Source: a virus. From it: DNA of 64,000 bases. This document shows, in pieces, positions 7,177 to 41,772 of this stretch; position 1 is the first letter of the stretch, and every line of letters begins with the position of its first letter. A model generated the notes under the pieces. The model was not told the origin of the DNA and did not search any database. It worked only from the letters and a program-made list of their open reading frames with translations. The position numbers and the translations under genes were made by a program. The DNA lies in the IMG/VR virus record IMGVR_UViG_3300021962_000046, positions 32,001-96,000 of that record, one strand, 5' to 3'.

Positions 7177-7611
7177 TCATTCAAACAAACAGGCAAATTC
7201 GTAGTTTAGATATTTTTCTGTTCTTATTTCTTTATTGTATGAAAGTTTGTTCCCGTTCATGTCCATAAGACATGTCCAACAACAAACTTGACGACCATCT
7301 TTAAAGAAATTGAAGTATACTATTTTTTCTAAACCTAAAAATGCCGACCCTATCTTAAAGACAACATGAAAAGGCAATGATATCAAATGTTTTGAAAATA
7401 TTTGAACATTGCTGGCTATGTTTTCGTCTATCTCAAACTCTGTATAACTAATACAAACATCATAACCATCAATTTGAAACTCCCATGTCTTATAGGGAGT
7501 TATTTTTACTTCTACTTCAGGCGAAACTCTAGGATATGTAAAAGGACGCAATACCCTTCCAAATATCTTCAACAATCTCACACCGTCTTTAAAAGATTTT
7601 ACTTTAATCAT
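7177..7611 (-). CDS. Hypothetical protein
   Basis: ATGA overlap with the amidoligase stop codon (translational coupling). Confidence 0.6.
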   Translation of the reverse strand: MIKVKSFKDGVRLLKIFGRVLRPFTYPRVSPEVEVKITPYKTWEFQIDGYDVCISYTEFEIDENIASNVQIFSKHLISLPFHVVFKIGSAFLGLEKIVYFNFFKDGRQVCCWTCLMDMNGNKLSYNKEIRTEKYLNYEFACLFE

Positions 7612-8543
7612 TTTTGAACTTCCAAAATATTGATTGAATGATCTATATCATCTTTTGAAAACTCTATTATTTTTTCCCAAACAGGATTTTTCACCCCAAG
7701 TCCATCTGCTTTCTGTGCTAATTTCAATTTTTCAGCAATCCATCCACAAATGTTTTTATCATTGAAAAAACCATCAAAATCCATGAAGCTAATTGTTTCA
7801 GGAAAATTAGCATATGACATTGATTTAATCCATTTTTCCATACTAATGTCCTTTGCTCTTTCAACAAAGCAAATTAAAATTTTACACCAGTTTACAGCAT
7901 CAATAGAATTTATACAAGCATTGTTACCCATAATCCTAAATTCCATAGTTTTTTTTCTTTTTTTCTTATAATGATACAAATTAATTGCATAATACTTATA
8001 TTCACTCAGCCTTCTCAACATATTCGAATAAGTTAAAGCCTCATGTTTATCAAAAATTGCCGAAAAACCTATTGGCTGACAATAATGATTCAACCACCTG
8101 TCATTGTTAGTTAACAAATAAAAAAACAATTCATTTCTAACCCAATTTAAAAAAAGATTCCAAACTTGATTTTCAGACAAATCCTCAATTTCAACATGAA
8201 CATGAAAGCTGCAACGACCATCAGATCTGGCAAATTTACTATCATTTAAACCATCAACAACATCTTTTAATTGATGAATAGCCTCGCTGGCAACCATCGG
8301 TGGACTACATACTTCCAACCCACAACTAGAATCTGGTTTTACAACCCATGCATTGTTATTGTTTGTATATTGCCAACCATTAACATCAACGCTTTTGCCA
8401 ATTTTTTTAGCAATCGAATTTGAATATGAAAAAATACCAACGGGAAGATTGTTTTTATCTTTAGATCTTGAATTATTATCAAGAGCATTGTACTCAAGCT
8501 CCACACCAAATCTTCTATTACACCTATCAAATAAACTATGCAT
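7608..8543 (-). CDS. Putative amidoligase (COOH-NH2 ligase, Amidoligase_2-like)
   Basis: RRFGVELEY, KPDSSCGLEVCSPP, CSFHVHV, KYYAINL, TMEFR motifs. Confidence 0.85.
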   Translation of the reverse strand: MHSLFDRCNRRFGVELEYNALDNNSRSKDKNNLPVGIFSYSNSIAKKIGKSVDVNGWQYTNNNNAWVVKPDSSCGLEVCSPPMVASEAIHQLKDVVDGLNDSKFARSDGRCSFHVHVEIEDLSENQVWNLFLNWVRNELFFYLLTNNDRWLNHYCQPIGFSAIFDKHEALTYSNMLRRLSEYKYYAINLYHYKKKRKKTMEFRIMGNNACINSIDAVNWCKILICFVERAKDISMEKWIKSMSYANFPETISFMDFDGFFNDKNICGWIAEKLKLAQKADGLGVKNPVWEKIIEFSKDDIDHSINILEVQK

Positions 8544-9104: not shown

Positions 9105-9356
9105 TCAATAAGCCAATTTCTGAGCATTCACATCTGCCAAAACCAAATCAACAAACTCAGAATATGTGATTTCTGGATTTTCTTTTATTTCTATTCTTCT
9201 GCTCGTATCTAATCTATTTTCTATTTCATAAACAACATCAATAAAATCTAAACTATCCATACCAATATCTTTTAAAGGTATGGACTTTTGATCTTGCTCG
9301 ATCTTCTTGCCCAAAACAGTCTCAAAGCAATCATCAATCACTTGTTCGTATTGCAT
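9105..9356 (-). CDS. acpP: Acyl carrier protein
   Basis: LKDIGMDSLDFIDVVYEIE phosphopantetheine-attachment motif; acidic 83-aa protein. True start MQYEQ at 9356 has a GGAGG SD. Confidence 0.8.
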   Translation of the reverse strand: MQYEQVIDDCFETVLGKKIEQDQKSIPLKDIGMDSLDFIDVVYEIENRLDTSRRIEIKENPEITYSEFVDLVLADVNAQKLAY

Positions 9357-9384
9357 ACATCCTCCATGATTTGAGTATACATTC

Positions 9385-9420
9385 AGCAAGCAGGCATAGT
9401 TTAAACCATGCCTGCTTGCT
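9385..9420. repeat. 36-bp near-perfect palindrome between recA and acp
   Basis: agcaagcaggcat-agtttaaacc-atgcctgcttgct (13-bp perfect arms). Confidence 0.8.
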
Positions 9421-9430
9421 TTGTCAAACA

Positions 9431-11737
9431 TTAACCAAGCATTTCATCAATTTCATCATCAGAATCACCAGCATCAAAAGCTTCTACATCTGGTGATTCC
9501 GTTGCATCTATGGCACTCATAAATGGTTCCAAATATGCAAGAACTTCTTCTTTTGTATTGGCATCAATCAATTTAGGACAATCAATCAATACCTGAATTG
9601 GAACATCATTTCTTTCAATAGAAGACTTAAATTTATATTCTTCTTCTGTTGATGCGTATTCTGGCTTGACTTTAAAGTTGCCAGCACCAGAGGCAATTAT
9701 TCTTTCAGCATCAAGCAAAGCACCCAGCAATCCTCCCAGAGGATTCATGCCTTTTTCAAAAAACAAAGGAATGTTTTCTATCTCAATAAATGGTCTCACA
9801 TTCCTGTTTTTCTTGTTGCTAATCTTTATGTTGATGCCGATGCTTTTCTTCTTAGCCAAACCCGGAACCTTCTGTTCAATCTTCTTTTGGGTTTGTGTTC
9901 GGAAGCGAAGAGACGCATAGAATGGAAGTGCATTTCCACCGCCTGCGGTTGTTTCTGGAGAATTATGAACAATTGCACCATCAACTACATAAGTGTGATT
10001 ATCCTCGATTGCAAGATCAAATTTAACCTTAGATTTAGTTGCTGGCTTCTCATGAATAGCAAGAACCATTGATTTTGCTACATCATAAAGCACAGAATCT
10101 TCATCCACTTCTTGAATTTCATAATTGAATTTACCATGAAAATCTGGATGAATCTTATATTGCATAGAATCTGGCACAAATTGAGCAATCATGCTATGCA
10201 ATTTATAAGTATTCTCAGCATCAAATATAAAACCTTTCTTGTCAATTTTAGCTTTCAAACCAAATTTCTTTTCAAAAATAGGAAGCATGTTTTTCATGTT
10301 TTTGAATTTTACACAACACAAACGAGCCTTGCCCTTGCCCCATTTTGCATAATTTCCACCATAAGTGCCATCATCCAAATACCAAATTGCAAGAGCAAGC
10401 AATCCAATCTTTTCAAATGCAATTTGTGGGATCACACAATCTCTGTTTTCCTGACCCCATTTATATTTTGATTTTCTAAAACCGAATTTGTTCAATTCAG
10501 GCATTGGGATTGTATCAAATCCAACTCTGCGCTCTTCAGAGTAAGAATAACCAACCCAAGGCGACAAAATAGATTCCTTCCATAGACAATATTCTGCTTG
10601 TTTTAACCCATGATTGATTCTTAATTGGGTTGCAGAATAGTTCTTTTTGCCAGTCCTTAGACTGCCATCTCCCAAAATTGAACCAATAACAACTTGTTCT
10701 TGTTCTTGAGTCAAATACTTAGGCTGAACTTGTGCCAGAGTATCACCGATTTTAATTTCACCGGCTGGTTTTTCAATAATTTTATCATCCTCCCACACAA
10801 ACATCATGTGGTTAGGTGTTGCTCCAAATTGTGATACACCATTTCCCCAAGGCTTTGTAGCAGTAAATTGCAAAAATTTCTGTCCTTCTTGCAAATTACC
10901 GTTATTGTGCCAAGCAATAACTTTCTTGGGTTCTACAACACCAGTTTTGGTATTATAAGATAATACTTCAACTGGAATCTTTTGATTGACAATTTTGCCA
11001 ATTTTCATGGTACTACCATCTGCCAACATTACCCTGCTTGAATAATGAAAGCACCCATACATAATTCCAATTTTTTCCCTAATTTGGTTCATAATAACAA
11101 CAGAAACATTATTTTCTTCCATTACTGTATTTAATTTACGAAGCTCTTTAGAACAGATCTTGGCTCTTTCTCCAGGTTGCTCATTGGCACCCACGATTTT
11201 TTTAAACTGTTCTTTGGTATATCCTTCAGGAAGATCAACTTCCCTGAACTCTCTGGAGCAAGGACTGACAGAGATAGAATCATAAACAATAACAATAGGC
11301 TTATCAGCATACTTTTTATTTGAACGAATATGCTCGATTGCCCTATACATCACATGAAAACATTTCTCCAAAGTTTCAGGTGTGTATCTGACGATCTTGT
11401 TCAAATCGGCATGGCTTGCTTTTTTAATAAAATCTTTATTAATAGCATTTTCACTATCAATAAGAATTGGAACACCACCAAGCTTTTGGCATCCAAACAG
11501 CAAGTTTGTTCCCAGTAAAGATTTAGAAGAAGCACTAGGCCCATAAATCTCAGTCAGCCTTCCACCCGGAACGCCACCATTTATGAATCTTCCTGAACAA
11601 CAATAATTAATAGCTAAATTTCCTGTATCAATAAAATACTTGCTTTCTTTTTCACCCTCTCCAACAACCTCACCGCCTGTTTCATTGGCTAAGGTTGAAA
11701 AAATATCATCATCAGTTTCTTTCTTTTGACGAGCCAT
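9431..11737 (-). CDS. uvsX: RecA/UvsX recombinase interrupted by an intein
   Basis: IDTGNLAIN, GGVPGGRLTEIYGPSASSKS, IDSE, YDSIS, NQIREKIG, PETTAGGGNALPFYASLR. Start likely MARQKK (11737). Confidence 0.92.
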   Translation of the reverse strand: MARQKKETDDDIFSTLANETGGEVVGEGEKESKYFIDTGNLAINYCCSGRFINGGVPGGRLTEIYGPSASSKSLLGTNLLFGCQKLGGVPILIDSENAINKDFIKKASHADLNKIVRYTPETLEKCFHVMYRAIEHIRSNKKYADKPIVIVYDSISVSPCSREFREVDLPEGYTKEQFKKIVGANEQPGERAKICSKELRKLNTVMEENNVSVVIMNQIREKIGIMYGCFHYSSRVMLADGSTMKIGKIVNQKIPVEVLSYNTKTGVVEPKKVIAWHNNGNLQEGQKFLQFTATKPWGNGVSQFGATPNHMMFVWEDDKIIEKPAGEIKIGDTLAQVQPKYLTQEQEQVVIGSILGDGSLRTGKKNYSATQLRINHGLKQAEYCLWKESILSPWVGYSYSEERRVGFDTIPMPELNKFGFRKSKYKWGQENRDCVIPQIAFEKIGLLALAIWYLDDGTYGGNYAKWGKGKARLCCVKFKNMKNMLPIFEKKFGLKAKIDKKGFIFDAENTYKLHSMIAQFVPDSMQYKIHPDFHGKFNYEIQEVDEDSVLYDVAKSMVLAIHEKPATKSKVKFDLAIEDNHTYVVDGAIVHNSPETTAGGGNALPFYASLRFRTQTQKKIEQKVPGLAKKKSIGINIKISNKKNRNVRPFIEIENIPLFFEKGMNPLGGLLGALLDAERIIASGAGNFKVKPEYASTEEEYKFKSSIERNDVPIQVLIDCPKLIDANTKEEVLAYLEPFMSAIDATESPDVEAFDAGDSDDEIDEMLG
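9962..11053 (-). mobile_element. Intein with LAGLIDADG homing endonuclease (364 aa) at the RecA-b site
   Basis: Junctions KIGIMYG|CFHYSSRV and GAIVHN|SPETT; block B ATPNH; LAGLIDADG-like blocks IGSILGDGS and LAIWYLDDG. Confidence 0.95.
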
Positions 11738-11795
11738 AAAACACCTCTTTTGATTTGCTTGCAACCCAAATTTATAACTTAAAAATGAACACGAA

Positions 11796-11840: not shown

Positions 11841-12815
11841 TTAACCGTCTGCTATTCCTTCCAAAGCTTTTTGGAAGTCATCGTCGATAACATCATCTTC
11901 TTCGGTCAAAACCTTTTTGGGCTGTACTTTCACAACCTCTTCTTTGACAGCTGCTGCCTTTTGAGTTGGTGCGGAAGTTTTCTTTTCTTCCCAATCAGAA
12001 GTTGATTCTGACTGACCACCACTAAAGAAAACCTTAACGGCTTTCTTCACTTCAGTAACTGGCAGCAATGCTCTCAACGAATCAAGATCATGCATATTTT
12101 CAAGCCAAATCTTGATTTGCTCATCTGTTCCCAAAGGACTTGGATCTTCAAAAGATGATTGGTCATACTTGGGGTATTCCATGCCGGAAGTACCCTTCGT
12201 AATCTTCTTGACCAATCTGAAATCTCTTCCAGTTACTGGATGAGTGACATTGCCCAGCTTTTTACGACCAGTAAGCTCACTACCATTAATCGATTCAAGA
12301 ATAATGGCCTGAAGAGTCTTACCGCAGCTGAGAATCTTAGGGCCGACATTCTTTTCGACAGTACCAGTCTTGGTATTGACCTGTTGTCGGACAATCACAT
12401 TCCAGTAATACCTTTCTACAGGCTTAATGCTTCTAGCCTGAGACTCCATGCGAATTTTCTCTTCGCCATGAAGGTTATTACTGATCTTCCAAAGTCTGCT
12501 GTACTCTTGGCAAACAGGACAATCCAAATCATGATTATTGCTTGGATTAATCCATTGCAAACCTCTTGAAGGAATGTTTACTCTGCTGCGAAGGCAATGA
12601 TAGGTTTTGGAATTAGGATAAGTTCCTAATGTGTGGATTCTTGTTGAGCAGAAAAGAGACTTGCCTTTTTGAGGGGGCAAAAACCTTAATAAAACATACC
12701 CGTCTTTTTCGGGCATTTTGACATAGTTGTCCATCACATTATTTTCTTTTGCGATGGCAGAGGCTTCTAAGCCAATCTGTCCCATGTCAATATCTTCAAA
12801 CTCGTAACTTGCCAT
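11841..12815 (-). CDS. gp32-like single-stranded DNA-binding protein
   Basis: LLRFLPP, Zn-ligand-like H..C...CPVC, RYYWNVIVR, GRDFRL, YPKYDQSSF, acidic C-terminal tail; adjacent to uvsX. Confidence 0.85.
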   Translation of the reverse strand: MASYEFEDIDMGQIGLEASAIAKENNVMDNYVKMPEKDGYVLLRFLPPQKGKSLFCSTRIHTLGTYPNSKTYHCLRSRVNIPSRGLQWINPSNNHDLDCPVCQEYSRLWKISNNLHGEEKIRMESQARSIKPVERYYWNVIVRQQVNTKTGTVEKNVGPKILSCGKTLQAIILESINGSELTGRKKLGNVTHPVTGRDFRLVKKITKGTSGMEYPKYDQSSFEDPSPLGTDEQIKIWLENMHDLDSLRALLPVTEVKKAVKVFFSGGQSESTSDWEEKKTSAPTQKAAAVKEEVVKVQPKKVLTEEDDVIDDDFQKALEGIADG

Positions 12816-12951: not shown

Positions 12952-13356
12952 TCAAGCAGAATTTTCAGAATTATTTTCTTCTTCTTTTGCTAACTCTTCT
13001 GCTTTAACTACTTCTTCCATCTGTTTTGTCAGTTCACTAATATGTGTTACTGTTCCCGTCTTTCCTTCTTCAATTTGCTTGTGCGCTTCCTTTCTAACTT
13101 CATCCTCTTTTACATATTCCTCTTCTAGTGCTTCCAATATTTTCATATTGTTTTCTAATCTTTCTTTTATTTCCTCCTTGCTAAGTCCAAGATTTTGTTT
13201 TTGTGCAAACTCCTTTTCAAAAGCTTGCTCTCTTGTTTTTTCATCTTTTCTTTCTTGTCTCAATGCAGTCCTGCGCTCCAAAACCTTTTTGCGAACCAAC
13301 TTTTCTCTGGCTTTTCTTTTTTGAAATTTACTTTTGCTTTCACGCCTACCTGACAT
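12952..13356 (-). CDS. Hypothetical coiled-coil protein (basic N-terminus, acidic C-terminus)
   Basis: ORF; probable start MSGRRES at 13356. Confidence 0.6.
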   Translation of the reverse strand: MSGRRESKSKFQKRKAREKLVRKKVLERRTALRQERKDEKTREQAFEKEFAQKQNLGLSKEEIKERLENNMKILEALEEEYVKEDEVRKEAHKQIEEGKTGTVTHISELTKQMEEVVKAEELAKEEENNSENSA

Positions 13357-13370
13357 GATCAACCTCTCAT

Positions 13371-14189
13371 TCATCTTAGTTTTGGTACAGAATCTTTTAT
13401 AACACCCGACCAATTCAACCTGTCATCAACAAGACCGTTTCCACTTCTTGAATCCATTAGATCGCCACCAACCAAATTCTGATCAGCTGGGATAAAAAGC
13501 TCGTCAACAACTTTAACACGATTGTTTGTGTCATCAATCGTATCAATCATCATCCCAATGCCATTTGAAGAAAAGGTCTCATGAAAAACAGGATATTTTT
13601 TATTATATGTAAATTTATATGGAAATTTAACTCTGTCTTCTACTTTGCTTGGAGAAAACAAAACATACCTGAGTATTCTCTCTTGTTTTGCTTGTGGTCT
13701 ATTTCTTGGATCAACTAAATTAATATTCTGATTATGCTTCACAGGAACAAGATTTACAGCTGTAGGAGATGGCATAGGTGTATATTGACAAGTTGGTTCG
13801 CCAACAGGAATCATTGGCACACCATTGGATTCATCAATTTCCTCATCTGATTGAGGTAAATTTAAAATCCCAGTATTTGTAAATTTTTTATTCTTTATTA
13901 TAAAATCACTTTTATTTTGTTTAAAAGTAATTTTTTTCTTCTGGAACTCATAAATTTCAACATCAAATACAAATATATCTCTTCTTGCCATCTGTTGCAT
14001 GACGGCCTGTGCTAGATTTTCCAATGAAAAATCTTCATTTTGTTTACCGAAAGTTTTCTTAAGAATCTTCGGATTATCACGATCATAATCAAAAGAATCT
14101 TTCAATTTGTCGTAATAATGATATTGAACTTCAAATCCGATGGGACACCTCTTAAAACAATCAATAAAATAATTATAGTAAATTTTCAA
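13371..14189 (-). CDS. Hypothetical protein
   Basis: 272-aa ORF overlapping the dCMP deaminase stop, within the operon. Confidence 0.65.
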   Translation of the reverse strand: MKIYYNYFIDCFKRCPIGFEVQYHYYDKLKDSFDYDRDNPKILKKTFGKQNEDFSLENLAQAVMQQMARRDIFVFDVEIYEFQKKKITFKQNKSDFIIKNKKFTNTGILNLPQSDEEIDESNGVPMIPVGEPTCQYTPMPSPTAVNLVPVKHNQNINLVDPRNRPQAKQERILRYVLFSPSKVEDRVKFPYKFTYNKKYPVFHETFSSNGIGMMIDTIDDTNNRVKVVDELFIPADQNLVGGDLMDSRSGNGLVDDRLNWSGVIKDSVPKLR

Positions 14190-14764
14190 TCAAAATCAGA
14201 TTTATCAAGCTCAATTATTTCCACATTTGCCTTTTCAAACAAAAATCTACTACCTACCGAATAATCTTTTTCTTCTTTAAAACAATAAACTTTTTTGATA
14301 CCTGCATTAATCACAAGTTTTGTGCATTCAATACAAGGCACAGGACACCATGCAAACATAACACATCCATATAAATCAGTAGAAGCATTTATAATTGCAT
14401 TCGCTTCAGCATGAGCGCAACTACATAATTCCAATCTCTTTCCAGACCCTGCCTTAATCAATTTTCTGGGACAAACCTTACAATCTGTATATTTGTCCAA
14501 AAACTCACTTTGAGTCATAGGCTTCAATTCAATTAAAGAAACCTCGTTTTCAGTAAGTTGTGGCCACACTATCTTCTGAAGATGCTCCCTGCTATCACAA
14601 TGAGGAACATCTCTTGGTGGGCCATTGTAGCCCGTGCCAACTATCTTGTTGATTTTTTCATCAACAATCAATACACCTATTTTTCTTGAATAACATGGAT
14701 TGGATTCTTCTCCGAGAAGTTTTGCCAAACGCATGTATTTTTTAATAAATTTATCTTTAATCAT
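14186..14764 (-). CDS. dCMP deaminase
   Basis: TGYNGPP, HAEANA and PCIEC zinc motifs; start likely MIKDK. Confidence 0.92.
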   Translation of the reverse strand: MIKDKFIKKYMRLAKLLGEESNPCYSRKIGVLIVDEKINKIVGTGYNGPPRDVPHCDSREHLQKIVWPQLTENEVSLIELKPMTQSEFLDKYTDCKVCPRKLIKAGSGKRLELCSCAHAEANAIINASTDLYGCVMFAWCPVPCIECTKLVINAGIKKVYCFKEEKDYSVGSRFLFEKANVEIIELDKSDFD

Positions 14765-14765
14765 A

Positions 14766-15203
14766 TTAAAACTCACTAGGGAAATTTATATCAGAATTAA
14801 GCTTGCTCATTTCCTTGCGGATCATATGACCACGATTATGAGCATCCTCTCTAGCTGAATTAAGAGCATTTAAATGAGCATAAATCAAATCCTTGATGTA
14901 CTTTGCATCAAGATACTTTTGTTTCAAATCACATACCTCTGGATCTCCTTCGGCATACAAATCAGCTGTTTTGTCACTCTTACCATCCTCTTTATAAATT
15001 TTATATTTTTCAATATATTTTTGCTTGTGTTTCTGCTCCAATGAAGCAACCCATCTGATACACCTTGCATGACCTGCACCAACATAATCGATGATACCAG
15101 AAACCTTTTCAAAAAAAGGATTCAAGGTTGCATCCGAAAACTTGAGGTCATCGGTGTTCAATTCCCAATTCTCGTCATCAATAACAATCTTTTTAACTGG
15201 CAT
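14766..15203 (-). CDS. UvsY-like recombination mediator (putative)
   Basis: ~145-aa helical protein (ADLYAEGDPEVCDLKQKY...RGHMIR) in an operon with helicase, SSB and UvsX. Confidence 0.5.
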   Translation of the reverse strand: MPVKKIVIDDENWELNTDDLKFSDATLNPFFEKVSGIIDYVGAGHARCIRWVASLEQKHKQKYIEKYKIYKEDGKSDKTADLYAEGDPEVCDLKQKYLDAKYIKDLIYAHLNALNSAREDAHNRGHMIRKEMSKLNSDINFPSEF

Positions 15204-16704
15204 AATCTGACTCCTCATCAAACTCTGTGAAATCCGAATCCTTTTTAACTTTCCCGTCAACTGATACTTTGTCTGCCTTTGAGGCAGCTAAGTTATGCAT
15301 AGCCTTCCTGTATTCCTCTGCTGAACACTCTGTAATGTCAAGCGTTTGTTTGTTGTACTTGACGAAGAAACTAAATTTGCTACTGCCCGTTCTGTTTTTT
15401 GCCACATAAAATATACCATAACCCGCTTCAGTTTCATTGTCTTTCTGATTTATCGACCACATACCATCCAAAGTTTTGAATTGATCATAACTAGTACCGA
15501 TGACACCTTCATCTATCAGCTGATTTTCAGCAAGTTTTTTGGCTTCCTTGTTTGGCTGCATAGCTGTGAAGACACACATATTCTTCTCCCTAGCCATGCC
15601 ACGCAAATCACGCATGATTAAATATTTACTTTCATGAAGCGGTATTCCCGGCTTGTCTTTCATTTCACCCGGATAATCAACTATTAACAAGTCGGGAACG
15701 AAACCCGACAATTCTAACTGGGTCAAATAAGCTTTTATATCATCAATATCTGCCTGACCTGAAGGAAATTGCTTGATGATAAAACGACTTTTATCATCGT
15801 ATTCCTTGAGTATAGCATCTGTAGTTGATTGAATTATAGTCTTGTTATCCATGAGCGCATTGTGTTCAACCAGAGCAAACTGGCTGATAAAACGCTTGGC
15901 AACAGAAACCCAATCCATTTCAAGCGATATATAAACAGCCTTTTTGCCCATTTTTACATTTTCAACAGCACCTTTTGTAAGACATAAACTCTTGCCTTTA
16001 CCCGGCAATCCTATCCAAGCATAAATCTCACCACGCTTAGGCCCACCAGCAGCAATACTATTGTCAATTTTTGGAAAACCACTTGTGAATCTTTCCTCTG
16101 GGGAGACATCTTTTTGAAGCTCTTCAAACATTTGACTAATGTTGGGAAATAAATCAAAACCTAATTCAAAGTTTTTGTTTACATTCATTGCACCTTTGAA
16201 TTTTTCATAAACACGAGTCCACATTTCCTCATTTTCAGGATCTTTCTTCATCTCCTTTTGAAAATAATCAGCTGCAATACGCAAAGATTGCATTCTTGCG
16301 AAAACTAAAACCTTGTCCAAAAGAATCTTCCTTGATTCTGAATTCGGAACAAATGATTCATAAATGTTTTCAAGCTCAACTTTATAAAATGTTATTATTG
16401 ATTCTTGCCTGTCCTTAATCTTGTCCAGCATCAGTTTTTCAACAATAAACTTTTCTGGAATGCCGTTGTATTCTGCAAAATAATCATAAAGTATTTTTGC
16501 GATTACAACATGGCTTTCCATAGTGAAGTAATCTGGTTCAATCAAAGCTTTTGCTTGAACCAGAAAATGCTTGTCTGTCATCAATAAAGCAAGAATACGC
16601 CGTTGGAAATTTTCATCCCAACGGTATTTGAGTTTTTGTGTTTCGGCTGATGCTGGGGATAAGCTGTCGATGATCTTCTTTTGTTCTTCAGAAAGACCAG
16701 ACAT
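15193..16704 (-). CDS. DnaB/gp41-like replicative helicase
   Basis: TSGFPKID, GLPGKGKS, YISLEM, LLIVDY, FTAMQ, VAKNRTG. Confidence 0.92.
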   Translation of the reverse strand: MSGLSEEQKKIIDSLSPASAETQKLKYRWDENFQRRILALLMTDKHFLVQAKALIEPDYFTMESHVVIAKILYDYFAEYNGIPEKFIVEKLMLDKIKDRQESIITFYKVELENIYESFVPNSESRKILLDKVLVFARMQSLRIAADYFQKEMKKDPENEEMWTRVYEKFKGAMNVNKNFELGFDLFPNISQMFEELQKDVSPEERFTSGFPKIDNSIAAGGPKRGEIYAWIGLPGKGKSLCLTKGAVENVKMGKKAVYISLEMDWVSVAKRFISQFALVEHNALMDNKTIIQSTTDAILKEYDDKSRFIIKQFPSGQADIDDIKAYLTQLELSGFVPDLLIVDYPGEMKDKPGIPLHESKYLIMRDLRGMAREKNMCVFTAMQPNKEAKKLAENQLIDEGVIGTSYDQFKTLDGMWSINQKDNETEAGYGIFYVAKNRTGSSKFSFFVKYNKQTLDITECSAEEYRKAMHNLAASKADKVSVDGKVKKDSDFTEFDEESDYAS

Positions 16705-16707
16705 TTT

Positions 16708-17268
16708 TTATCCCCCATAAACCAAGTAATCGTGATCGGACAAACTAACTTGTCCACTTCTGACAGGTTTTTCTCTTGTTATCTTTTTACCAAGATTCCT
16801 CTGAGCATTCCAGATGATTTGTTTACAATATGTAAAAAATTTAGTGTCAAATATCAAACTCTTCGTTTTTTGGGGCAATTCATCTGGATTTAAATATATT
16901 AAACAAATCTTGCCCAACAAGTCTTCTTGATAATCACCAAACTTCTGCCTGTTTGCTCCATGTCGGGTTCTGTTGTGCCATAAATTTTGCAGTTCATCTA
17001 TTATCATTCTCACAACATGATTGATTTTTTTGTTTCTTAACTTCTCAAAACAAGAGTCTATGTAAACCTGCCTCTTGTAATAAGAGCCTGCACGAATAAC
17101 AGATACCATCAATTCCTGATTGAAATCATCCAGATCGAATTGATGATTGTTTGCCGAGTTCTTTCGGTTCAACTGCCAAGATGCGTAATAACACAATTGA
17201 CCAAACTTCTTATCCAACAAATTGTACTCATCTGCGTTTATTGGAAAATTCTTGTATATAGAACTCAA
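16708..17268 (-). CDS. Putative sigma-70 region-2-like protein
   Basis: DLDDFNQELMVSVIRA ... KFFTYCKQIIWN...RNL resembles sigma regions 2.2-2.4 with an insertion. Confidence 0.45.
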   Translation of the reverse strand: MSSIYKNFPINADEYNLLDKKFGQLCYYASWQLNRKNSANNHQFDLDDFNQELMVSVIRAGSYYKRQVYIDSCFEKLRNKKINHVVRMIIDELQNLWHNRTRHGANRQKFGDYQEDLLGKICLIYLNPDELPQKTKSLIFDTKFFTYCKQIIWNAQRNLGKKITREKPVRSGQVSLSDHDYLVYGG

Positions 17269-18581
17269 TTTTTCGCCTTTCTCTTTAGTTTCTGCATTTT
17301 GTCCAAACTTTTACCAGCCATAACCGATACGGAAAGTTTTAACTCAGGTATCAATTCTGTTTGTTTTTCCAAAATACTTCTGGCAGCCATATATGCGTCT
17401 TGCATATCTTTTTGCCTGACTGCCAGACAATAACCATCATGAACGCTGTAAACAATCTGATACAAATTGCTACTCTGCTTGTATAATTTTACCAAAGATT
17501 CCAAACAAATCAAAGCAGCAGGTGATTGAATTGCAAAATTCCTTGCCTTATAAGATTCTTTTGAATCAAAAAATCTTTTTCTACCAAATTTGTCTTTTAC
17601 AAATTCATTCTTGGATGCCAAATCTTGATGCCCCTCAACATAGTCAAAACTTTTACTAAAAGTTTTTCTTACTATATCAAAATAGATTTGTGCTTGATCG
17701 AATGATATTTCTAGATTTCTGGCAAGACCGGCTGCTGTTTGTCCATATATAATCGGCAAAAATGTTTTTTTTGCTATATCTTTTGCATTTTCGCTGGCTA
17801 CATTAAACACCTTTTGAAAAATAATCTCATAAACAGAATCAGAATTATTATTGATTATATCTTGCAACACCTCATCCTCTGCAAGACAGGCAAGAACACC
17901 TACTTCCATGCTTCGATAATCAAATTGAAAAAAGATATGATCTTGATTTAACAATCTAAAATTCGACTTGTAATCACCCAAAGAATGCGGGTTGTAACAA
18001 CGCTTCATCTCACAACTACATGACAACCTGCCGTTTTCTTGACCCTCAATGTGATAGTTCGGATAAACCAATTGACCTATATTATCATCTATCAAACAAT
18101 AACTCTCTATAGCTGGAATAACTTCGCAAATAATCGGCTGAAAAACCTTCTTGTAAATGCTTATCAACACCTTGTTGGTAACCCATTCCTTAAAATGCCT
18201 TTCTTGCCTTGAAATTTCGCTTATAGACGATTCTTTTGCCAAATATGACTCGTACCACAATAAATCAAAAACATTCTTTAAAACGATGTTTTTGCCAGTC
18301 AGGCGGGTAAAGAGGGTGAATATCTGTTTCCAGTCATGTCCAATCAGAGGAATGTTCTTCTTGGATACAAAAGCTTCAAATAATTTAAGGAATAAAAACA
18401 CATTTTCGGAATGAAGATTCATTTGAACCATTTTGCCAGAAATGGTTTCTATCTTGAATTTGACGAATATCTTGGATTTGCTGGTAGAATCTATTTTCTC
18501 TGGATTCCAAGAACAAAAAATGTAACTCTCTGATTTCAATAATTCATCCAAGGATCTGCTCAAATCTTCAAGGTTGGCCAT
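17265..18581 (-). CDS. Compact family A DNA polymerase (thumb-less, degenerate 3'-5' exonuclease)
   Basis: ENGRLS; motif A FDYRSMEVGVLA; motif B AKKTFLPIIYG; FGRKR; ARNFAIQS; motif C VHDG. Confidence 0.85.
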   Translation of the reverse strand: MANLEDLSRSLDELLKSESYIFCSWNPEKIDSTSKSKIFVKFKIETISGKMVQMNLHSENVFLFLKLFEAFVSKKNIPLIGHDWKQIFTLFTRLTGKNIVLKNVFDLLWYESYLAKESSISEISRQERHFKEWVTNKVLISIYKKVFQPIICEVIPAIESYCLIDDNIGQLVYPNYHIEGQENGRLSCSCEMKRCYNPHSLGDYKSNFRLLNQDHIFFQFDYRSMEVGVLACLAEDEVLQDIINNNSDSVYEIIFQKVFNVASENAKDIAKKTFLPIIYGQTAAGLARNLEISFDQAQIYFDIVRKTFSKSFDYVEGHQDLASKNEFVKDKFGRKRFFDSKESYKARNFAIQSPAALICLESLVKLYKQSSNLYQIVYSVHDGYCLAVRQKDMQDAYMAARSILEKQTELIPELKLSVSVMAGKSLDKMQKLKRKAKN

Positions 18582-18693
18582 CAGAAGTTCACCTCAGTTC
18601 TGTTTCCACTTAACCTAACATAGAAGCCCCAAAAAACACAAATAAGTACTGGAAATAATAATCTACAAAATTTATCTTTTATATGTCCATACC

Positions 18694-19110
18694 GGGGGGC
18701 GGGTCTAAGGTGGTGAAGAAAAAAAATATAATAATGACTTTTTATCATTATTATGGGTTTTTTTTCGATACCACTCTAGATTTGAGATCAGTATTGCTAG
18801 TGATGTGCATCATTTGATGATATCCTTAGCTTTACTGAATTGTGTGTTTGGGTAACACACAGTTAACTTGTCGGTTTGAGAATCCTAACCGTACATCATG
18901 TCTCAACTTGAAAAGTTTAATTTTCAATTTGAGAACAGCCCGCCTTAATTTGGCTGATGTAGGCTCACCTAGTCTCATGCCGGTTCATTAGGTTCCCGTA
19001 TTACCTAATGGGTCTAGCAGGGTGTACCGCCCCAGCAAGGTTTATATTGCTCAAATCTCACGAATTGAACTCAGTAACTTTTCAGGCCGACAATTCGCCT
19101 TACTAGGTTA
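18694..19110. ncRNA. Candidate large structured non-coding RNA (or structured ssDNA origin); strand unresolved
   Basis: At least eight hairpins plus long-range complementary segments in an ORF-free intergenic region (see findings). Confidence 0.5.
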
Positions 19111-19220: not shown

Positions 19221-19931
19221 ATGGAAATATTCATGAAATATGAACCAGAAATAGCGATCAATTTGAATATGACCGAAGAAGAAAGCATGGCTTACTACCT
19301 GCTCTGTTTCTACATCAATAAAACCAGAGAACTTATTCCAAATTATCGCCATCCAAGAATCACAACAAAAATAGAAAAACTTAAAACTAGCCTCGCATTT
19401 AAACACATGATGAAATTTGTTCGTGAAAAAAGAAAAAAATTCAAAGATCCAAAGTATTTGGAAATTTACATACTTGCACAAATAGTCATTATGAAAAAAC
19501 AACACGAAATGGGAAACAACGCATTAGTTGATTTTCAAATGCTACATGGTGAAGGGGCAAACAGAAGGTGGGAAATCTGGAAGAAGATGTACAGAGATAA
19601 AAATATGGTTAGTGATATTAACTATACATTCACAAAAACAAATATAGAGAATGAATTTAACAAAACCATAAATACACTCAATAAAATACTAGGTGATGAT
19701 AAAAGTTTAGAAAATTATGTTACTCATGCAAACGAAATACTAACAAACATAATTATAAAAAGAATAAGTCATATGTATGTCTACTTTTCAAAGTGGATTA
19801 AGAAACTTCCAGAAGAAATACGAGGCGAGATAAAAGACATAATCAACACAGATGCCTTGAAAACTTTTGACTTATCAGCTGTAAAAAAATGCTATGAGAA
19901 AAATTTTGAATATGAAATTAATATGTCATGA
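19221..19931 (+). CDS. Hypothetical protein
   Basis: 236-aa ORF divergent from the replication operon, with an AAGGA SD-like sequence. Confidence 0.7.
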   Translation: MEIFMKYEPEIAINLNMTEEESMAYYLLCFYINKTRELIPNYRHPRITTKIEKLKTSLAFKHMMKFVREKRKKFKDPKYLEIYILAQIVIMKKQHEMGNNALVDFQMLHGEGANRRWEIWKKMYRDKNMVSDINYTFTKTNIENEFNKTINTLNKILGDDKSLENYVTHANEILTNIIIKRISHMYVYFSKWIKKLPEEIRGEIKDIINTDALKTFDLSAVKKCYEKNFEYEINMS

Positions 19932-20733
19932 ATATTTTCATCAAACAGTCAATTATCTCTTCAGGCTTTTGTCTAGGACTAAAAAGCTCATCCCATTCAC
20001 TTGGGGTAGACATATAAAGCCTTGTTCTAGAAGGACTTGTGACTTCACACCCCCACGAATGTATTAATCCTTTATTCGGTTTGTATTGCATGTATATGTT
20101 AAACGATTCTGCTTTTTGGTTATTTGGTACTCCATTTCCAAAACCTCTATAGTTCATGTATATTAAATAAACATTTTCTTGAAGCTTAATTATTCCACCA
20201 TATGTCATGATTGATGGGTGTTCCAACCTAATTCTCTGTGCTAATCTTAATGTCAAATCTTCAAGACCTTTGTAATTATTGTCTACTGGATCTATCGGTT
20301 CTTTTTCTATTTCAACAAGTTTTTTATACAAGTCATCAGCAAGTATTTCTTCAGATGGATCGTTGTCACCCTTGTGATCATAGTCATTAAGCAAAGGAAT
20401 AACAGATTTACATACTGGAATTAAGTTGCCACCTTCATTTTTGATGAATTTTCTAATTATTATCTTATAAGATCCTAAAGGACTTACACTTACATGCAAA
20501 CCACCAGCTTCATTGCCATATTCGACAATATTAGGCCAATTTTTTACTGGAACTTTGTTGCCTATCATGCCCAAATGGAATAAATCGTCTAGAACTAAAG
20601 TACTTCTAAGGTTTTCTATTGGTTGTTCTTCATAGAATGGAGTCTTTTTCTCAATTTTATGTTGAGGAGCAAAACCAAAAATATCTTCTGGTCTTTTTGC
20701 AAGCCATTCTTTAAACAAACTTATTTTTTTCAT
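19918..20733 (-). CDS. Hypothetical protein (candidate internal head protein)
   Basis: Start MKKISLFKEWL at 20733. Confidence 0.65.
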   Translation of the reverse strand: MKKISLFKEWLAKRPEDIFGFAPQHKIEKKTPFYEEQPIENLRSTLVLDDLFHLGMIGNKVPVKNWPNIVEYGNEAGGLHVSVSPLGSYKIIIRKFIKNEGGNLIPVCKSVIPLLNDYDHKGDNDPSEEILADDLYKKLVEIEKEPIDPVDNNYKGLEDLTLRLAQRIRLEHPSIMTYGGIIKLQENVYLIYMNYRGFGNGVPNNQKAESFNIYMQYKPNKGLIHSWGCEVTSPSRTRLYMSTPSEWDELFSPRQKPEEIIDCLMKIFMTY

Positions 20734-20776
20734 TTTCCCCACTAAATATATGATAATTCTATATATTGGAACATAC

Positions 20777-21061
20777 ATGAATAAATTTTCAATTTGGCTG
20801 GAAGAGCGTGATAATACAATTCAAGATGTTCACACAACTACCTTGAAGAATTTTTTGGGTCTAAGTCCCCTTAAAGATTCTAGTTTCATGCAAATCCAAT
20901 TAAGTGATTTTGAAAAAATGCAGGAAATCCATACAAAAATAACACATTGGAATTTCTTCACGGACAAGCTTTCTGAAGTTTCAAAAAACAAAATATACGA
21001 ACTTTTAAAGAACGAAAACACAAGGATGATAGATCTTATTGAAAATATGGAAGTCAATTAG
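20777..21061 (+). CDS. Hypothetical protein (candidate internal head protein)
   Basis: Start MNKFSIWLEE at 20777. Confidence 0.55.
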   Translation: MNKFSIWLEERDNTIQDVHTTTLKNFLGLSPLKDSSFMQIQLSDFEKMQEIHTKITHWNFFTDKLSEVSKNKIYELLKNENTRMIDLIENMEVN

Positions 21062-22473
21062 TCCTCAACTATTTTTATTTCATGACCTTGCTGCTTGAGG
21101 ATTTTTATTCTCTTCATGCTGTGCTTGTATAAATACGGATTCATTTCAAACACAAAATCAATATAATTAAGACCATCTTTATCTTTTGCTGTTCTTAAGC
21201 CACGACCCATTCTTTGGATGATGAGATGATCTGCCTGACCACCAGCAGCATTTATGAGGTTGTGGACAAAAACATTGATTCCGGTGTTGAAAATACCTTG
21301 TGTTGCTATGGCAATACATTCCTTGTCCTTTTGCAACTTCTCAATGACATACTTTCTTGTTTCATCATTATCCTTGCCTTGCACCCACAAAGCATGAGGT
21401 ATCAACGCTTGCAATGCGTCACCATGAGCCAATCTGTCAACCAATATAAGTGTTCTACCCTTAAGTTCAGTTGTTAAGCTTATAACTTTTTGATGAAAAG
21501 CATCATTCTCGACTAATCCCTTGGTGACAGCGTCAATATAAATCTCAAAATCAAGTTCGGGTTCTTTTATTTTATAAAAAGTACAATGACTCTTAGAAAG
21601 CCTACCTCTCTTTTGTAGTTCTTTTGTCGTAACAACTCCAGTTTCAGTTGATTTAATCTTGAACGGAGGGCCAAAAAAACCTTTGACATAGTATTTCTGT
21701 ATTTTATCTGTTTCACCGAATTTGAACGGAGTAGCACTTACAGCAATTCTTACGCTGCAATTTTTAAGTCTTCTATAAACACTTTTTGGTGCTGCACTCA
21801 TCATGTCATGAATTTCATCAACTAAAAGTACTTTGACTTCTGGCAAAAGATCTTCTGCTTTAGATATAGATTGAACAGTAGACACAGTAATGTCATTGGG
21901 TTCATTACTGCCACCCCATATGCGTCCCACATTGTGTAATCCCCATTTAACATACTCTTCATAGTTTTGAATAGCTAATGTTTTTCTATTCTGAAGGACT
22001 AATGTTTTTGTGCCAGATGGCAAACATTTAAGTATGGAAAGCATGGTTAAAGATTTTCCAGCCGAAGTTGGCGCAAATATAACACCTCTTTTATTTTTAA
22101 TAGCTGCATTTACAAGATCTACTTGGTAATCTTCCAAAGTAATTGGTTGTGATTCTTTTGGCGTACAAGAATGAAGAAATGTAGAATTTATTTCTTTTAT
22201 TGAAAATTCAAAAGGCAATCGTTTATCAATAATTTCAACTTCTTCATTGAAAGCCTTGCATGAAGCAAGTATCTCAGGAAGAAGTCCTGTCAAAAATTTT
22301 CCATTTTTGTCATTAAAAAAATTAGTGTAACCATCCCATAAACGCTGTCTATATCTTGGGTTATGAAAATATCCACGATCACGGAATCTCAAATTATCAA
22401 ATATAAATTTGATTAATTTGGTATTCGCAGTCTGCATTATTGAAATGTCATTTTGTAGAAGTATTCTTGTCAT
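21058..22473 (-). CDS. uvsW: UvsW-like SF2 helicase
   Basis: LWDGY..FF, LEDYQ, APTSAGKS, VDEIH, SAT, FNTGIN, QRMGRGLR. Confidence 0.88.
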   Translation of the reverse strand: MTRILLQNDISIMQTANTKLIKFIFDNLRFRDRGYFHNPRYRQRLWDGYTNFFNDKNGKFLTGLLPEILASCKAFNEEVEIIDKRLPFEFSIKEINSTFLHSCTPKESQPITLEDYQVDLVNAAIKNKRGVIFAPTSAGKSLTMLSILKCLPSGTKTLVLQNRKTLAIQNYEEYVKWGLHNVGRIWGGSNEPNDITVSTVQSISKAEDLLPEVKVLLVDEIHDMMSAAPKSVYRRLKNCSVRIAVSATPFKFGETDKIQKYYVKGFFGPPFKIKSTETGVVTTKELQKRGRLSKSHCTFYKIKEPELDFEIYIDAVTKGLVENDAFHQKVISLTTELKGRTLILVDRLAHGDALQALIPHALWVQGKDNDETRKYVIEKLQKDKECIAIATQGIFNTGINVFVHNLINAAGGQADHLIIQRMGRGLRTAKDKDGLNYIDFVFEMNPYLYKHSMKRIKILKQQGHEIKIVED

Positions 22474-22510
22474 GATTAATCCTTGGGCAACAAATAATTA
22501 ATATACATTA

Positions 22511-23563
22511 TTAGACTGCCCAATACAACATTTCTTTTGCTCTGCTTGCTGCTGTGTATGCCCATCTTTCATGACTCCACAAATCACACTTTTCTTCATA
22601 AACAAGAACTTTATCCCATTCATCACCTTGGGCTTTATGGGTTGTGATCGCATAAGAATAATCAAAAAAACCAGTTTCTCTGTCTGAGTTAGCAGCTTCA
22701 AGCAGTTTTTCTTGATTGAATTGTTTTTGATCAATTGGTATTTCGCAAAAACCATTGTCGGTTTGTATTTTCACCTTGTTCTTCTTGATGGTTTTAACCG
22801 TGCCTTGCATGCCGTTAAAAATATTAAGGGTCTTGTTGTTTTTAAGACATATAATTCTCTCGCCTTTTACCAACACATCTTCATATCCAAGATGCTCTCT
22901 AATTCGTTTATTGAAGCTGATTCTGGTTCTGTTAAAACCACAAATAATCTGGTCAACATCAGCAAGTAGTTCATTTTTCAATGTTTTCTTTGCAACAAGT
23001 TTGACTCTGTCATCTGAAGAATATTCAATCGCAGAATTTCCTTTTCTCAAAAAGTCAGCAAACTTTGCAATGCTATTGGCATTTCGGTGAATGGTTTCCA
23101 GTTTGTAATGAGGCTTCTTCATCAGATTGAAGGACGAGCCTACTGGTTCTAATTGACCATGATCACCGAAGAAGACAACTGGCAAATCAAAAGACATAAT
23201 GTCAGAAAATAATTCCTCGCTTATCATACTTGCTTCATCTATAAAAAATCCTCTGAAATCTATCTTGTTTTTAGGTTTCAAATAAAATTTAGGATTTCCT
23301 TTATAATCTTCTTCAACATGATATATTGTTGAATGGATTGTAGCTGCGTCACCTATGCCTTTTTTACGCAAAACATTTGCAGCTTTGCCTGTGAATGCAC
23401 AAACGGCAAAGTTTGGGTATGCGTTAGTAAGTTCGGAAAGACAAGTACTTTTACCAGAACCAGCGTATCCACCGATACAAATAAACTGCTTGTTTTGTAT
23501 TTCTTTTTTGATTGATGACAATAAGTGATTTTGTTCTTCGGTAAGAATTGGTTTCTTTTCCAT
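22511..23563 (-). CDS. dda: Dda/RecD2-like SF1B helicase
   Basis: LTEEQ, GYAGSGKS, AFTGKAA, TIHS, IDEASM, GDHGQL, YAITTHKAQG, YTAASRA. True start MEKKP at 23563 with GGAG. Confidence 0.88.
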   Translation of the reverse strand: MEKKPILTEEQNHLLSSIKKEIQNKQFICIGGYAGSGKSTCLSELTNAYPNFAVCAFTGKAANVLRKKGIGDAATIHSTIYHVEEDYKGNPKFYLKPKNKIDFRGFFIDEASMISEELFSDIMSFDLPVVFFGDHGQLEPVGSSFNLMKKPHYKLETIHRNANSIAKFADFLRKGNSAIEYSSDDRVKLVAKKTLKNELLADVDQIICGFNRTRISFNKRIREHLGYEDVLVKGERIICLKNNKTLNIFNGMQGTVKTIKKNKVKIQTDNGFCEIPIDQKQFNQEKLLEAANSDRETGFFDYSYAITTHKAQGDEWDKVLVYEEKCDLWSHERWAYTAASRAKEMLYWAV

Positions 23564-23822
23564 ACAAATGTATCTCCAAAAAGTGTTCAGCCTATGTAAA
23601 TAATGTTGTTCGGATGTGATTAAACCACATTTGGGGGTACAAGCAAATGTTAAATGAAGAATTGGCAGAAGTAGTTCGAATGGTAACGGTACTAGACGAT
23701 AAAGTAGATAATCTAACCAACAGGCAAAAAGATCTTTTCGAAAAATTAAATAGATCAATTTATAGAACGGAAAGATTTTTAGAAAAAACGGAAACTCCAA
23801 AAGATATAGCAGCTACAAAAAA

Positions 23823-41232: not shown

Positions 41233-41772
41233 ATGTCTACAGAGTACCTTAACAATAAAGCTTTCGAGACAATTATAATTAAGTTTCAGGAATCAAAAAG
41301 AAACAGACAAAAATATAAAATACTTAAAAAAGACCATGATATACAAAGCGCAGTATTCGCATTAAACAAAATGTCTTTAAAAACACCAGATTGGCTCACC
41401 AAAGAGAATCATGTAAAAATTGAAGAGGAATACTTGGAAGCACAATCAATCCTTGCAGAAGCTTTTTATACTCTATCACAAAATATTGTTAGATATGCAA
41501 AATTTTCTAATATTGATGAAGATGATGCTGTTCAAGAAGGTGTGCTGATTTGTTTTGAAAGAGCAGAGAAATTTGACCCAGAAAAGGGCAAGGCATTCAA
41601 TTACATGACTACCTGTATACTTAATCATTTTAGACAACTATGGAGAACTGCCAAAAACTATAATGAATTGAAAAAGAAATATAAAGAAATATTCCAAGCA
41701 ACTATTGACTCAGCCATGCTTCCAAGAAGAAAAGAAAAGAAAGTAAATTATAATCCAAATAATTTAAGATAA
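41233..41772 (+). CDS. gp55-like late sigma factor (region 2 only)
   Basis: YLNNKAF N-terminus; DDAVQEG...CFERAEKFDPEKGKAFNYMT.CI.N.F. Confidence 0.8.
   Translation: MSTEYLNNKAFETIIIKFQESKRNRQKYKILKKDHDIQSAVFALNKMSLKTPDWLTKENHVKIEEEYLEAQSILAEAFYTLSQNIVRYAKFSNIDEDDAVQEGVLICFERAEKFDPEKGKAFNYMTTCILNHFRQLWRTAKNYNELKKKYKEIFQATIDSAMLPRRKEKKVNYNPNNLR

Follow-up and report, generated by a model that had tools for sequence, protein, structure and literature searches.

In family A DNA polymerases the thumb is regarded as gripping the primer-template duplex and as setting processivity and frameshift fidelity. Thumb residues have been removed by design from Klenow polymerase, in a deletion that reportedly spans 24 residues. 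As summarised in PMC2441791, this engineered thumb-tip mutant keeps its activity while its DNA affinity, processivity and frameshift fidelity are lowered (Minnick, Astatke, Joyce and Kunkel, 1996, cited in PMC2441791). In the phage PolA protein divPolA1 the palm residues are conserved, the thumb is truncated and the exonuclease domain is inactivated, and the divPolA1 gene heads the replication gene array of phages of 155-190 kb in which a regular polymerase is encoded as well (Yutin et al., 2024; PMC11348598). Here we describe a mini family A DNA polymerase gene, polA, whose product lacks the thumb altogether, in 64,000 nucleotides of viral DNA (the window, to which all coordinates refer unless stated otherwise) that correspond to bases 32001-96000 of the 106.6-kb IMG/VR record IMGVR_UViG_3300021962_000046. 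The gene occupies 17265..18581, the coordinates assigned to it in a preliminary description of the window, lies on the minus strand together with all the features of polA given below, and encodes a protein of 438 aa (P0001). CheckV places the completeness of the source record at ~21%, and the record is therefore a fragment of a huge phage of ~0.5 Mb.

P0001 matches the Pfam DNA_pol_A profile (PF00476), scoring 100.8 bits where the cut-off is 34.3 (E 1e-28). Residues 172-426 align with profile positions 107-379 of 381, so that the thumb part of the profile (its first 106 positions) is left unmatched. Against the NCBIfam Pol I equivalogs (PRK05755 / TIGR00593) the score is 84.6 bits with a cut-off of 720, and P0001 carries neither a 5'-3' nuclease domain nor the DEDD residues, which places it outside bacterial DNA polymerase I. 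An AlphaFold2 (AF2) model computed from alignment A1 (57 homologous sequences) has a predicted local distance difference test score (pLDDT) of 94.1 and a predicted template modelling score (pTM) of 0.93, and in Foldseek it matches the Klenow, Bst and Taq large fragments along its own entire chain (template modelling (TM) score by query 0.80). The best whole-chain structural match is KlenTaq, the Stoffel fragment (PDB 3lwm; VIA-align Z 32.2), where model residues 9-431 superpose on chain residues 297-832 with 389 residues aligned (target 538); at the N-terminus the match sets in at model residue 4-9, opposite KlenTaq 294-297. Because the superposition on KlenTaq runs the whole length, the N-terminal 136 residues (18174..18581) are the counterpart of its vestigial 3'-5' exonuclease domain, and the remainder forms the palm and fingers. 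BFVD holds no viral model of like size and shape (best TM score by target at most 0.62).

The superposition shows no normal thumb, one of the two outcomes that the preliminary description had named as overturning its reading. In the DSSP assignment of the AF2 model, helix 137-160, which bears the conserved Y143...P156-x-x-E159, is followed by two strands (163-165 and 170-174) with a four-residue turn between them, and the helical hairpin is absent; the thumb of ~100 residues is replaced by this turn, leaving a right-hand fold with palm and fingers. The site of the missing thumb (aa 161-170; 18072..18101), as located by DSSP, landmark spacing and a MAFFT gap of ~100 residues, consists of two palm strands and a short variable turn (DNIG). 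Measured from the pre-thumb 'IE' Glu to the 'GRLS' Arg, the distance is 26 residues in P0001 versus 127 in E. coli Pol I, and the same landmarks lie 25 residues apart in 217 of 244 family members (range 19-26), a constancy that makes thumb loss a trait of the family. Over E. coli residues 528-675 the MAFFT alignment contains 148 residues from E. coli and 222 from T7 gp5, as against 48 from the family and 64 from the divPolA1 prototype. The Hhalign alignment to E. coli Klenow (E 1.8e-17) begins at P0001 residue 164, which faces the post-thumb 'INPKTGRVHTSY...TGRLSS' segment.

The N-terminal domain retains the exonuclease fold and has lost its catalytic residues. Its only conserved acids are D31 and D106, the latter within the structural 'FD-L...ESY' strand, and no conserved carboxylate was found at the ExoI, ExoII or ExoIII positions in the P0001 family; proofreading is therefore dead, as in KlenTaq. 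The preliminary description had proposed from the letters alone that the protein lacks the thumb, keeps intact palm and finger motifs with Leu at the F762 position and HDG in motif C, and carries a dead exonuclease with residual fold, and on each of these points the model and the alignments agree with it. All of the motifs that it quoted (FDYRSME, AKKTFLPIIYG, VHDG, GRLS, LIGHDWK and FDLLWYESYL) are present in P0001.

The polymerase site is preserved. Motif A (aa 217-227; 17901..17933) contains the catalytic D221 and the steric-gate E226, motif B with the O-helix (aa 267-280; 17742..17783) contains K267, K271, L275, Y279 and G280, and motif C (aa 379-384; 17430..17447) reads SVHDGY. Hhalign places these opposite the Klenow residues D705 (D221), E710 (E226), K758 (K271), F762 (L275), Y766 (Y279) and H881-D882-E883 (H381-D382-G383). 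D221, E226, K271, L275, Y279, G280 and H381-D382-G383 are invariant or nearly so in the family, as are R185 (R668), N348 (N845) and Q352 (Q849); more than 200 clusters show no variation at the steric-gate Glu or at the minor-groove sensor positions, and K267 is Arg in most members. Two departures from the canonical site are seen, the Leu at the F762 position, which has already been recorded in several PolA subfamilies (PMC10201439), and the Gly that replaces the motif C Glu. With its motif residues invariant the site is thus near-canonical and predicted to be dNTP-selective (selective for deoxynucleoside triphosphates), and P0001 is, as judged from the alignments, predicted to be a catalytically competent, active-looking, DNA-templated family A DNA polymerase. 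A role in primer or RNA synthesis, which had been considered for the gene before, found no support. An RNA polymerase or primase-like PolA derivative is rejected on the invariant steric gate E226 (E710), and a weak candidate Toprim primase, an open reading frame (ORF) of ~340 aa that matches below the Pfam cut-off, is encoded elsewhere in four of seven related records.

The family to which P0001 belongs is large. A word-indexed search recovered 145 proteins, ~120 of them full-length (430-455 aa, 30-52% identity), and an exhaustive search at E<1e-30 yielded 201 clusters (50% identity), nearly all of 420-455 aa. More than 200 clusters of near-constant length show that the thumbless layout is not due to chance. 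No longer or fused forms of the family were recovered, the only such proteins being bacterial Pol I at E ~1e-6. For pairs with measurable synonymous divergence (dS), the ratio of nonsynonymous to synonymous divergence (dN/dS) is 0.09-0.2. Taken with the invariant motifs, this ratio marks an active-looking DNA polymerase under purifying selection, and the family is confined to huge (~0.2-0.6 Mb) T4-like phages. Decay into a pseudogene, which the preliminary description had named as an outcome that would overturn its reading, is rejected on the conserved catalytic residues, the 201 clusters with their full-length homologues and the dN/dS values.

Comparison with enzymes already described brings out both shared and private features. 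KlenTaq shares the dead 3'-5' exonuclease domain and the Pol I-type palm and fingers; unlike P0001, it has the full ~100-residue thumb, Phe at the F762 position and an HDE motif C, and its parent protein also carries a 5'-3' nuclease domain. The Klenow thumb-tip mutant, as far as it is summarised in PMC2441791, shares the removal of family A thumb residues with retention of activity, but it is an engineered deletion, whereas in the natural P0001 family the entire subdomain is gone and there has been time for compensation. A natural family without the thumb but with a near-canonical dNTP site offers a clean natural experiment on thumb function, and P0001 itself a compact (~50 kDa), exonuclease-minus scaffold for enzymology.

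The closest architecture is that of divPolA1, here compared through the immuto_3-5A gene 1 prototype (441 aa) only, with CAB4155247 and QDP51333 and the genomes LR796625, MK892584, MK892766, LR796420, LR797270 and MK892784 outside the comparison. Both proteins comprise ~440 aa with family A palm and fingers, the catalytic Asp residues, a thumb truncated at the same site and an N-terminal exonuclease-like domain that is inactivated, and both are encoded by the first gene of a module with a single-strand DNA-binding protein (SSB), a recombinase and DnaB. The two nevertheless show no BLASTP similarity, and in profile-profile comparison the P0001 family meets the prototype family at E 1.2e-4 (probability 54%) and Klenow at 1.8e-17, while the prototype family meets Klenow at 2.9e-6. 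The steric gate is Glu in the P0001 family and His in the prototype, motif C is HDG in the one and YDA in the other, and where the prototype keeps ~16 residues of the thumb the P0001 family keeps none. The hosts differ as well: the P0001 family resides in phages of 0.2-0.6 Mb that encode a DnaE-type Pol III alpha, divPolA1 in genomes of 155-190 kb. By these sequence measures the P0001 family is distinct from divPolA1, as represented by the immuto prototype, and closer to Klenow, the architecture itself having been published in 2024. In a palm and fingers tree the two groups come together with support of 95/92, a grouping that may reflect long-branch attraction; when only one of them is included, it attaches in either case to the same branch, next to a Herelleviridae PolA. 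If the two are not sisters, the stripped-down PolA design would have arisen independently; considered together they suggest a recurrent arrangement in large and huge phages, in which a second, stripped-down PolA heads the replication module and a regular replicase is present beside it.

The genes around polA form a T4-like replication and recombination module. On the minus strand the order is a Dda-like helicase, a superfamily 2 (SF2) helicase, a 286-aa gene, a region of ~1.3 kb with a structured element and then polA, followed by a 186-aa gene, DnaB, a 164-aa gene, dCMP deaminase, genes of 272 and 153 aa, a gp32-like SSB and UvsX/RecA. The SF2 DNA helicase (471 aa; PHROG 16, 1e-66) and the Dda-like superfamily 1 (SF1) helicase (429 aa; PHROG 325, 1e-79) together span 21058..23800. 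Downstream lie the DnaB-like replicative helicase (503 aa; 15193..16704; PHROG 19, 1.4e-54, and Pfam DnaB_C), dCMP deaminase (14186..14776; Pfam 7e-17, PHROG 174), the T4 gp32-like single-strand DNA-binding protein (11841..12815; Pfam gp32 2.8e-15, PHROG 1192) and a UvsX/RecA-like recombinase of 777 aa with an intein inside it that carries a LAGLIDADG homing endonuclease (9431..11764; Pfam RecA, Intein_splicing and LAGLIDADG_2; PHROG 97), all on the minus strand. Among 80 IMG/VR loci that bear a family member, on contigs of up to 532 kb, DnaB lies downstream of polA in 76 and the 186-aa gene directly downstream in all 80, and the SSB and the UvsX-like recombinase follow further downstream in many. 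These counts bear out the earlier proposal that polA heads an array of replication genes.

A second polymerase is encoded by relatives of this phage. DnaE-type Pol III alpha was found in 12 of 19 related, mostly fragmentary records, 35-65 kb downstream of polA, and in most of the records without it the sequence on that side of polA stops within 20 kb. LR756511 (595 kb), the sole record of the phage collection with a full-length P0001 homologue, has a Pol III alpha ORF of 1183 aa. PolB was absent from the six relatives' records searched, LR756511 included, and from the window's own fragment. The preliminary description had suggested searching the rest of the genome for a replicase and a primase: the replicase search thus gave a DnaE-type enzyme in relatives and no PolB, and the primase search the sub-threshold Toprim candidate described above.

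The Pol III alpha of relatives is often divided in two, at one shared point (TIGR00594 position ~393/398), into an N-terminal ORF of ~455-490 aa and a C-terminal ORF of ~907-932 aa that lie 4-14 kb apart. The observation concerns the records G002, G003, G007, G009, G011 and G014 (among them loci L090-L093) and G013 at 80348-86317 of that record, and in one relative both parts are contained in a single ORF of 2269 aa. The common split point and the single long ORF suggest an intein or split-intein insertion site.

The gene directly downstream of polA (16708..17268, minus strand) encodes a helical protein of 186 aa. Its start overlaps the polA stop, as it often does in other loci, and adjacency to polA holds despite inserts of up to 9 kb before dnaB. 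Across loci its identity is 47-75% as against 29-51% for polA, with a mean column identity of 63% (alignment A2). The AF2 model is helical (pLDDT 86), with a C-terminal tail (16708-16770) that is disordered yet invariant and has the consensus VSLSEFDYL (VSLS-x-x-DYL; S175, S177 and L182 invariant). The single sequence has no match in Pfam, NCBIfam or PHROG and none in the PDB by sequence or Foldseek. In a VIA-wide search with the model, sigma domain-2 structures lead (SigB, Z 7.5; SigE, 7.3; sigma70, 7.2; sigma28, 6.9; and many extracytoplasmic function factors), with Z of 6.3-7.5 that lies in the grey zone or noise range for helical proteins. Sigma70_r2 (PF04542) clusters in the ESM Atlas lie near the protein by features (0.95) and by structure, and three family members match PHROG 351, a sigma factor family, weakly. 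The 186-aa protein is probably a sigma-like factor. It resembles T4 gp55 in length (186 versus 185 aa), in what the model suggests to be a sigma domain-2-like helical core (its Z being in the grey zone) and in an acidic, aromatic C-terminal tail (SLDFLY-EAND in gp55); Hhalign nevertheless detects no homology between the 186-aa family and gp55 (probability 0.1%), nor between the 186-aa gene and the two genes that follow divPolA1 in immuto. Unlike this gene, clear sigma70_r2 proteins are encoded elsewhere in these phage genomes. One of them is a 179-aa ORF at 41233-41772 on the plus strand (Sigma70_r2, E 9e-9), kept in seven of seven related records searched, so that the 186-aa gene is accompanied in this phage by at least one recognisable sigma factor.

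Directly upstream of polA lies a structured non-coding element of ~400 nt (18690..19110, minus strand) with a fold z-score of -4.87. Conservation extends to 5-8 close relatives, the nucleotide identity reaching 86% in comparisons whose PolA proteins are only 44-51% identical, and 9 of 32 consensus pairs are compensatory, among them the long-range closing helices that join a 'GGCRGGC / CTGGGG' block to the downstream 'GCCYGCCCCCCGG' block. A covariance model of its 5' half, built from six close relatives and accordingly narrow, gave hits in 9 of 82 sources, each time upstream of polA and each time within the closest subclade. Rfam returned no family match at gathering or E-value thresholds. The element is a genuine RNA-like element, tied to the polymerase by position only.

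The balance of these observations tips towards P0001 being an accessory, distributive short-patch polymerase that acts beside a DnaE-type replicase within the T4-like module. The accessory assignment follows from the presence of Pol III alpha in 12 of 19 relatives together with the absence of PolB; divPolA1 is likewise always found alongside a regular polymerase (PMC11348598). Pol III alpha would then be the likely processive replicase of these phages, which supports the earlier judgement that the thumbless enzyme is unlikely to be a processive replicase on its own. Lacking thumb and proofreading, P0001 would bind duplex DNA weakly and add few nucleotides per encounter, and it may carry out short-patch synthesis at forks or recombination intermediates (e.g. 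primer extension, gap filling or D-loop extension), probably recruited there by a protein partner. Several findings weigh against this assignment. Neither PolB nor Pol III alpha nor a PolA exonuclease domain was found in the window's own 106-kb fragment (21% complete), so that co-occurrence is inferred from relatives. A 532-kb record that CheckV rates 100% complete has neither Pol III alpha nor PolB, which we explain by the short distance (19 kb) between its polA and the end of the contig. Seven records were searched for a Pol I-type 5'-3' exonuclease (FEN) and none had one, leaving a role in Okazaki maturation without an evident partner nuclease, and we do not commit to that role. All through the family Gly stands in for the motif C Glu, and the position of polA at the head of a helicase and SSB module could equally mean a role in the core replisome. 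This last point, the 532-kb record and the argument from context that Yutin et al. made for divPolA1 (PMC11348598) would all suit a mini-PolA that is itself the main replicative polymerase, made processive by DnaB, SSB or an unrecognised clamp, with Pol III alpha as the accessory enzyme. We regard this as quite unlikely, since an enzyme without thumb and proofreading is a poor fit for a genome of ~500 kb, Pol III alpha is conserved in the clade even though most of its records are fragmentary, and the exceptional record ends 19 kb past polA. That P0001 is a decaying or non-catalytic relic is extremely improbable: the lost thumb, the lost exonuclease site and the motif C change would fit such a pseudoenzyme, but D221, E226, K271, Y279, H381, D382, R185 and Q352 are invariant or nearly so in hundreds of clusters, the proteins keep their length, dN/dS stays at 0.09-0.2 and the model has high confidence.

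The partner that the accessory reading calls for may be sought next to polA, and the strict coupling to a small sigma-like gene provides a concrete lead. Carried further, thumbless PolA and the 186-aa protein would form an obligate two-subunit polymerase, the small protein gripping the duplex and so replacing the thumb in trans, as the preliminary description had suggested for the coupled gene or the adjacent structured element, or tethering the enzyme to a clamp or partner through its tail. The unbroken adjacency in 80 loci, the frequently overlapping codons, the retention of the pair despite up to 9 kb inserted before dnaB, the conservation exceeding that of polA and an invariant disordered tail that resembles a short docking motif and the gp55 end SLDFLY all speak for such an enzyme, but VIA, the Atlas and PHROG 351 independently indicate a sigma domain-2 fold (at Z within the noise range), and no beta-clamp was found by Pfam in seven records; we consider an obligate complex unlikely. 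It is rather unlikely, too, that PolA and a sigma-2-like partner constitute a new two-subunit enzyme, perhaps one that links replication to late transcription. An RNA partner is a different matter. The upstream element folds, covaries, is better conserved than PolA and precedes polA in all nine sources, as might be expected if the polymerase worked with the ~400-nt RNA in an RNA-assisted or RNA-templated manner, or if a leader RNA mediated autoregulation. However, the element was detected only in the closest subclade (nine of 82 sources, with a narrow model) while the polymerase family extends far beyond it with its architecture unchanged, an internal terminator-like hairpin and the 110 nt that precede the start codon would suit an independent RNA or a leader, and no physical link joins element and enzyme, all of which make this alternative very unlikely.

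Four further genes of the module, all on the minus strand, have no family match: 19918-20778 (286 aa), 14766-15260 (164 aa), 13371-14189 (272 aa) and 12952-13413 (153 aa). They are syntenic in 18-62 of the 80 loci and are candidates for a loader, mediator, clamp or nuclease. At its end, on the same strand, the module carries an acyl-carrier-protein-like gene of 108 aa (9105-9431) and an amidoligase-family gene (7608-8543).

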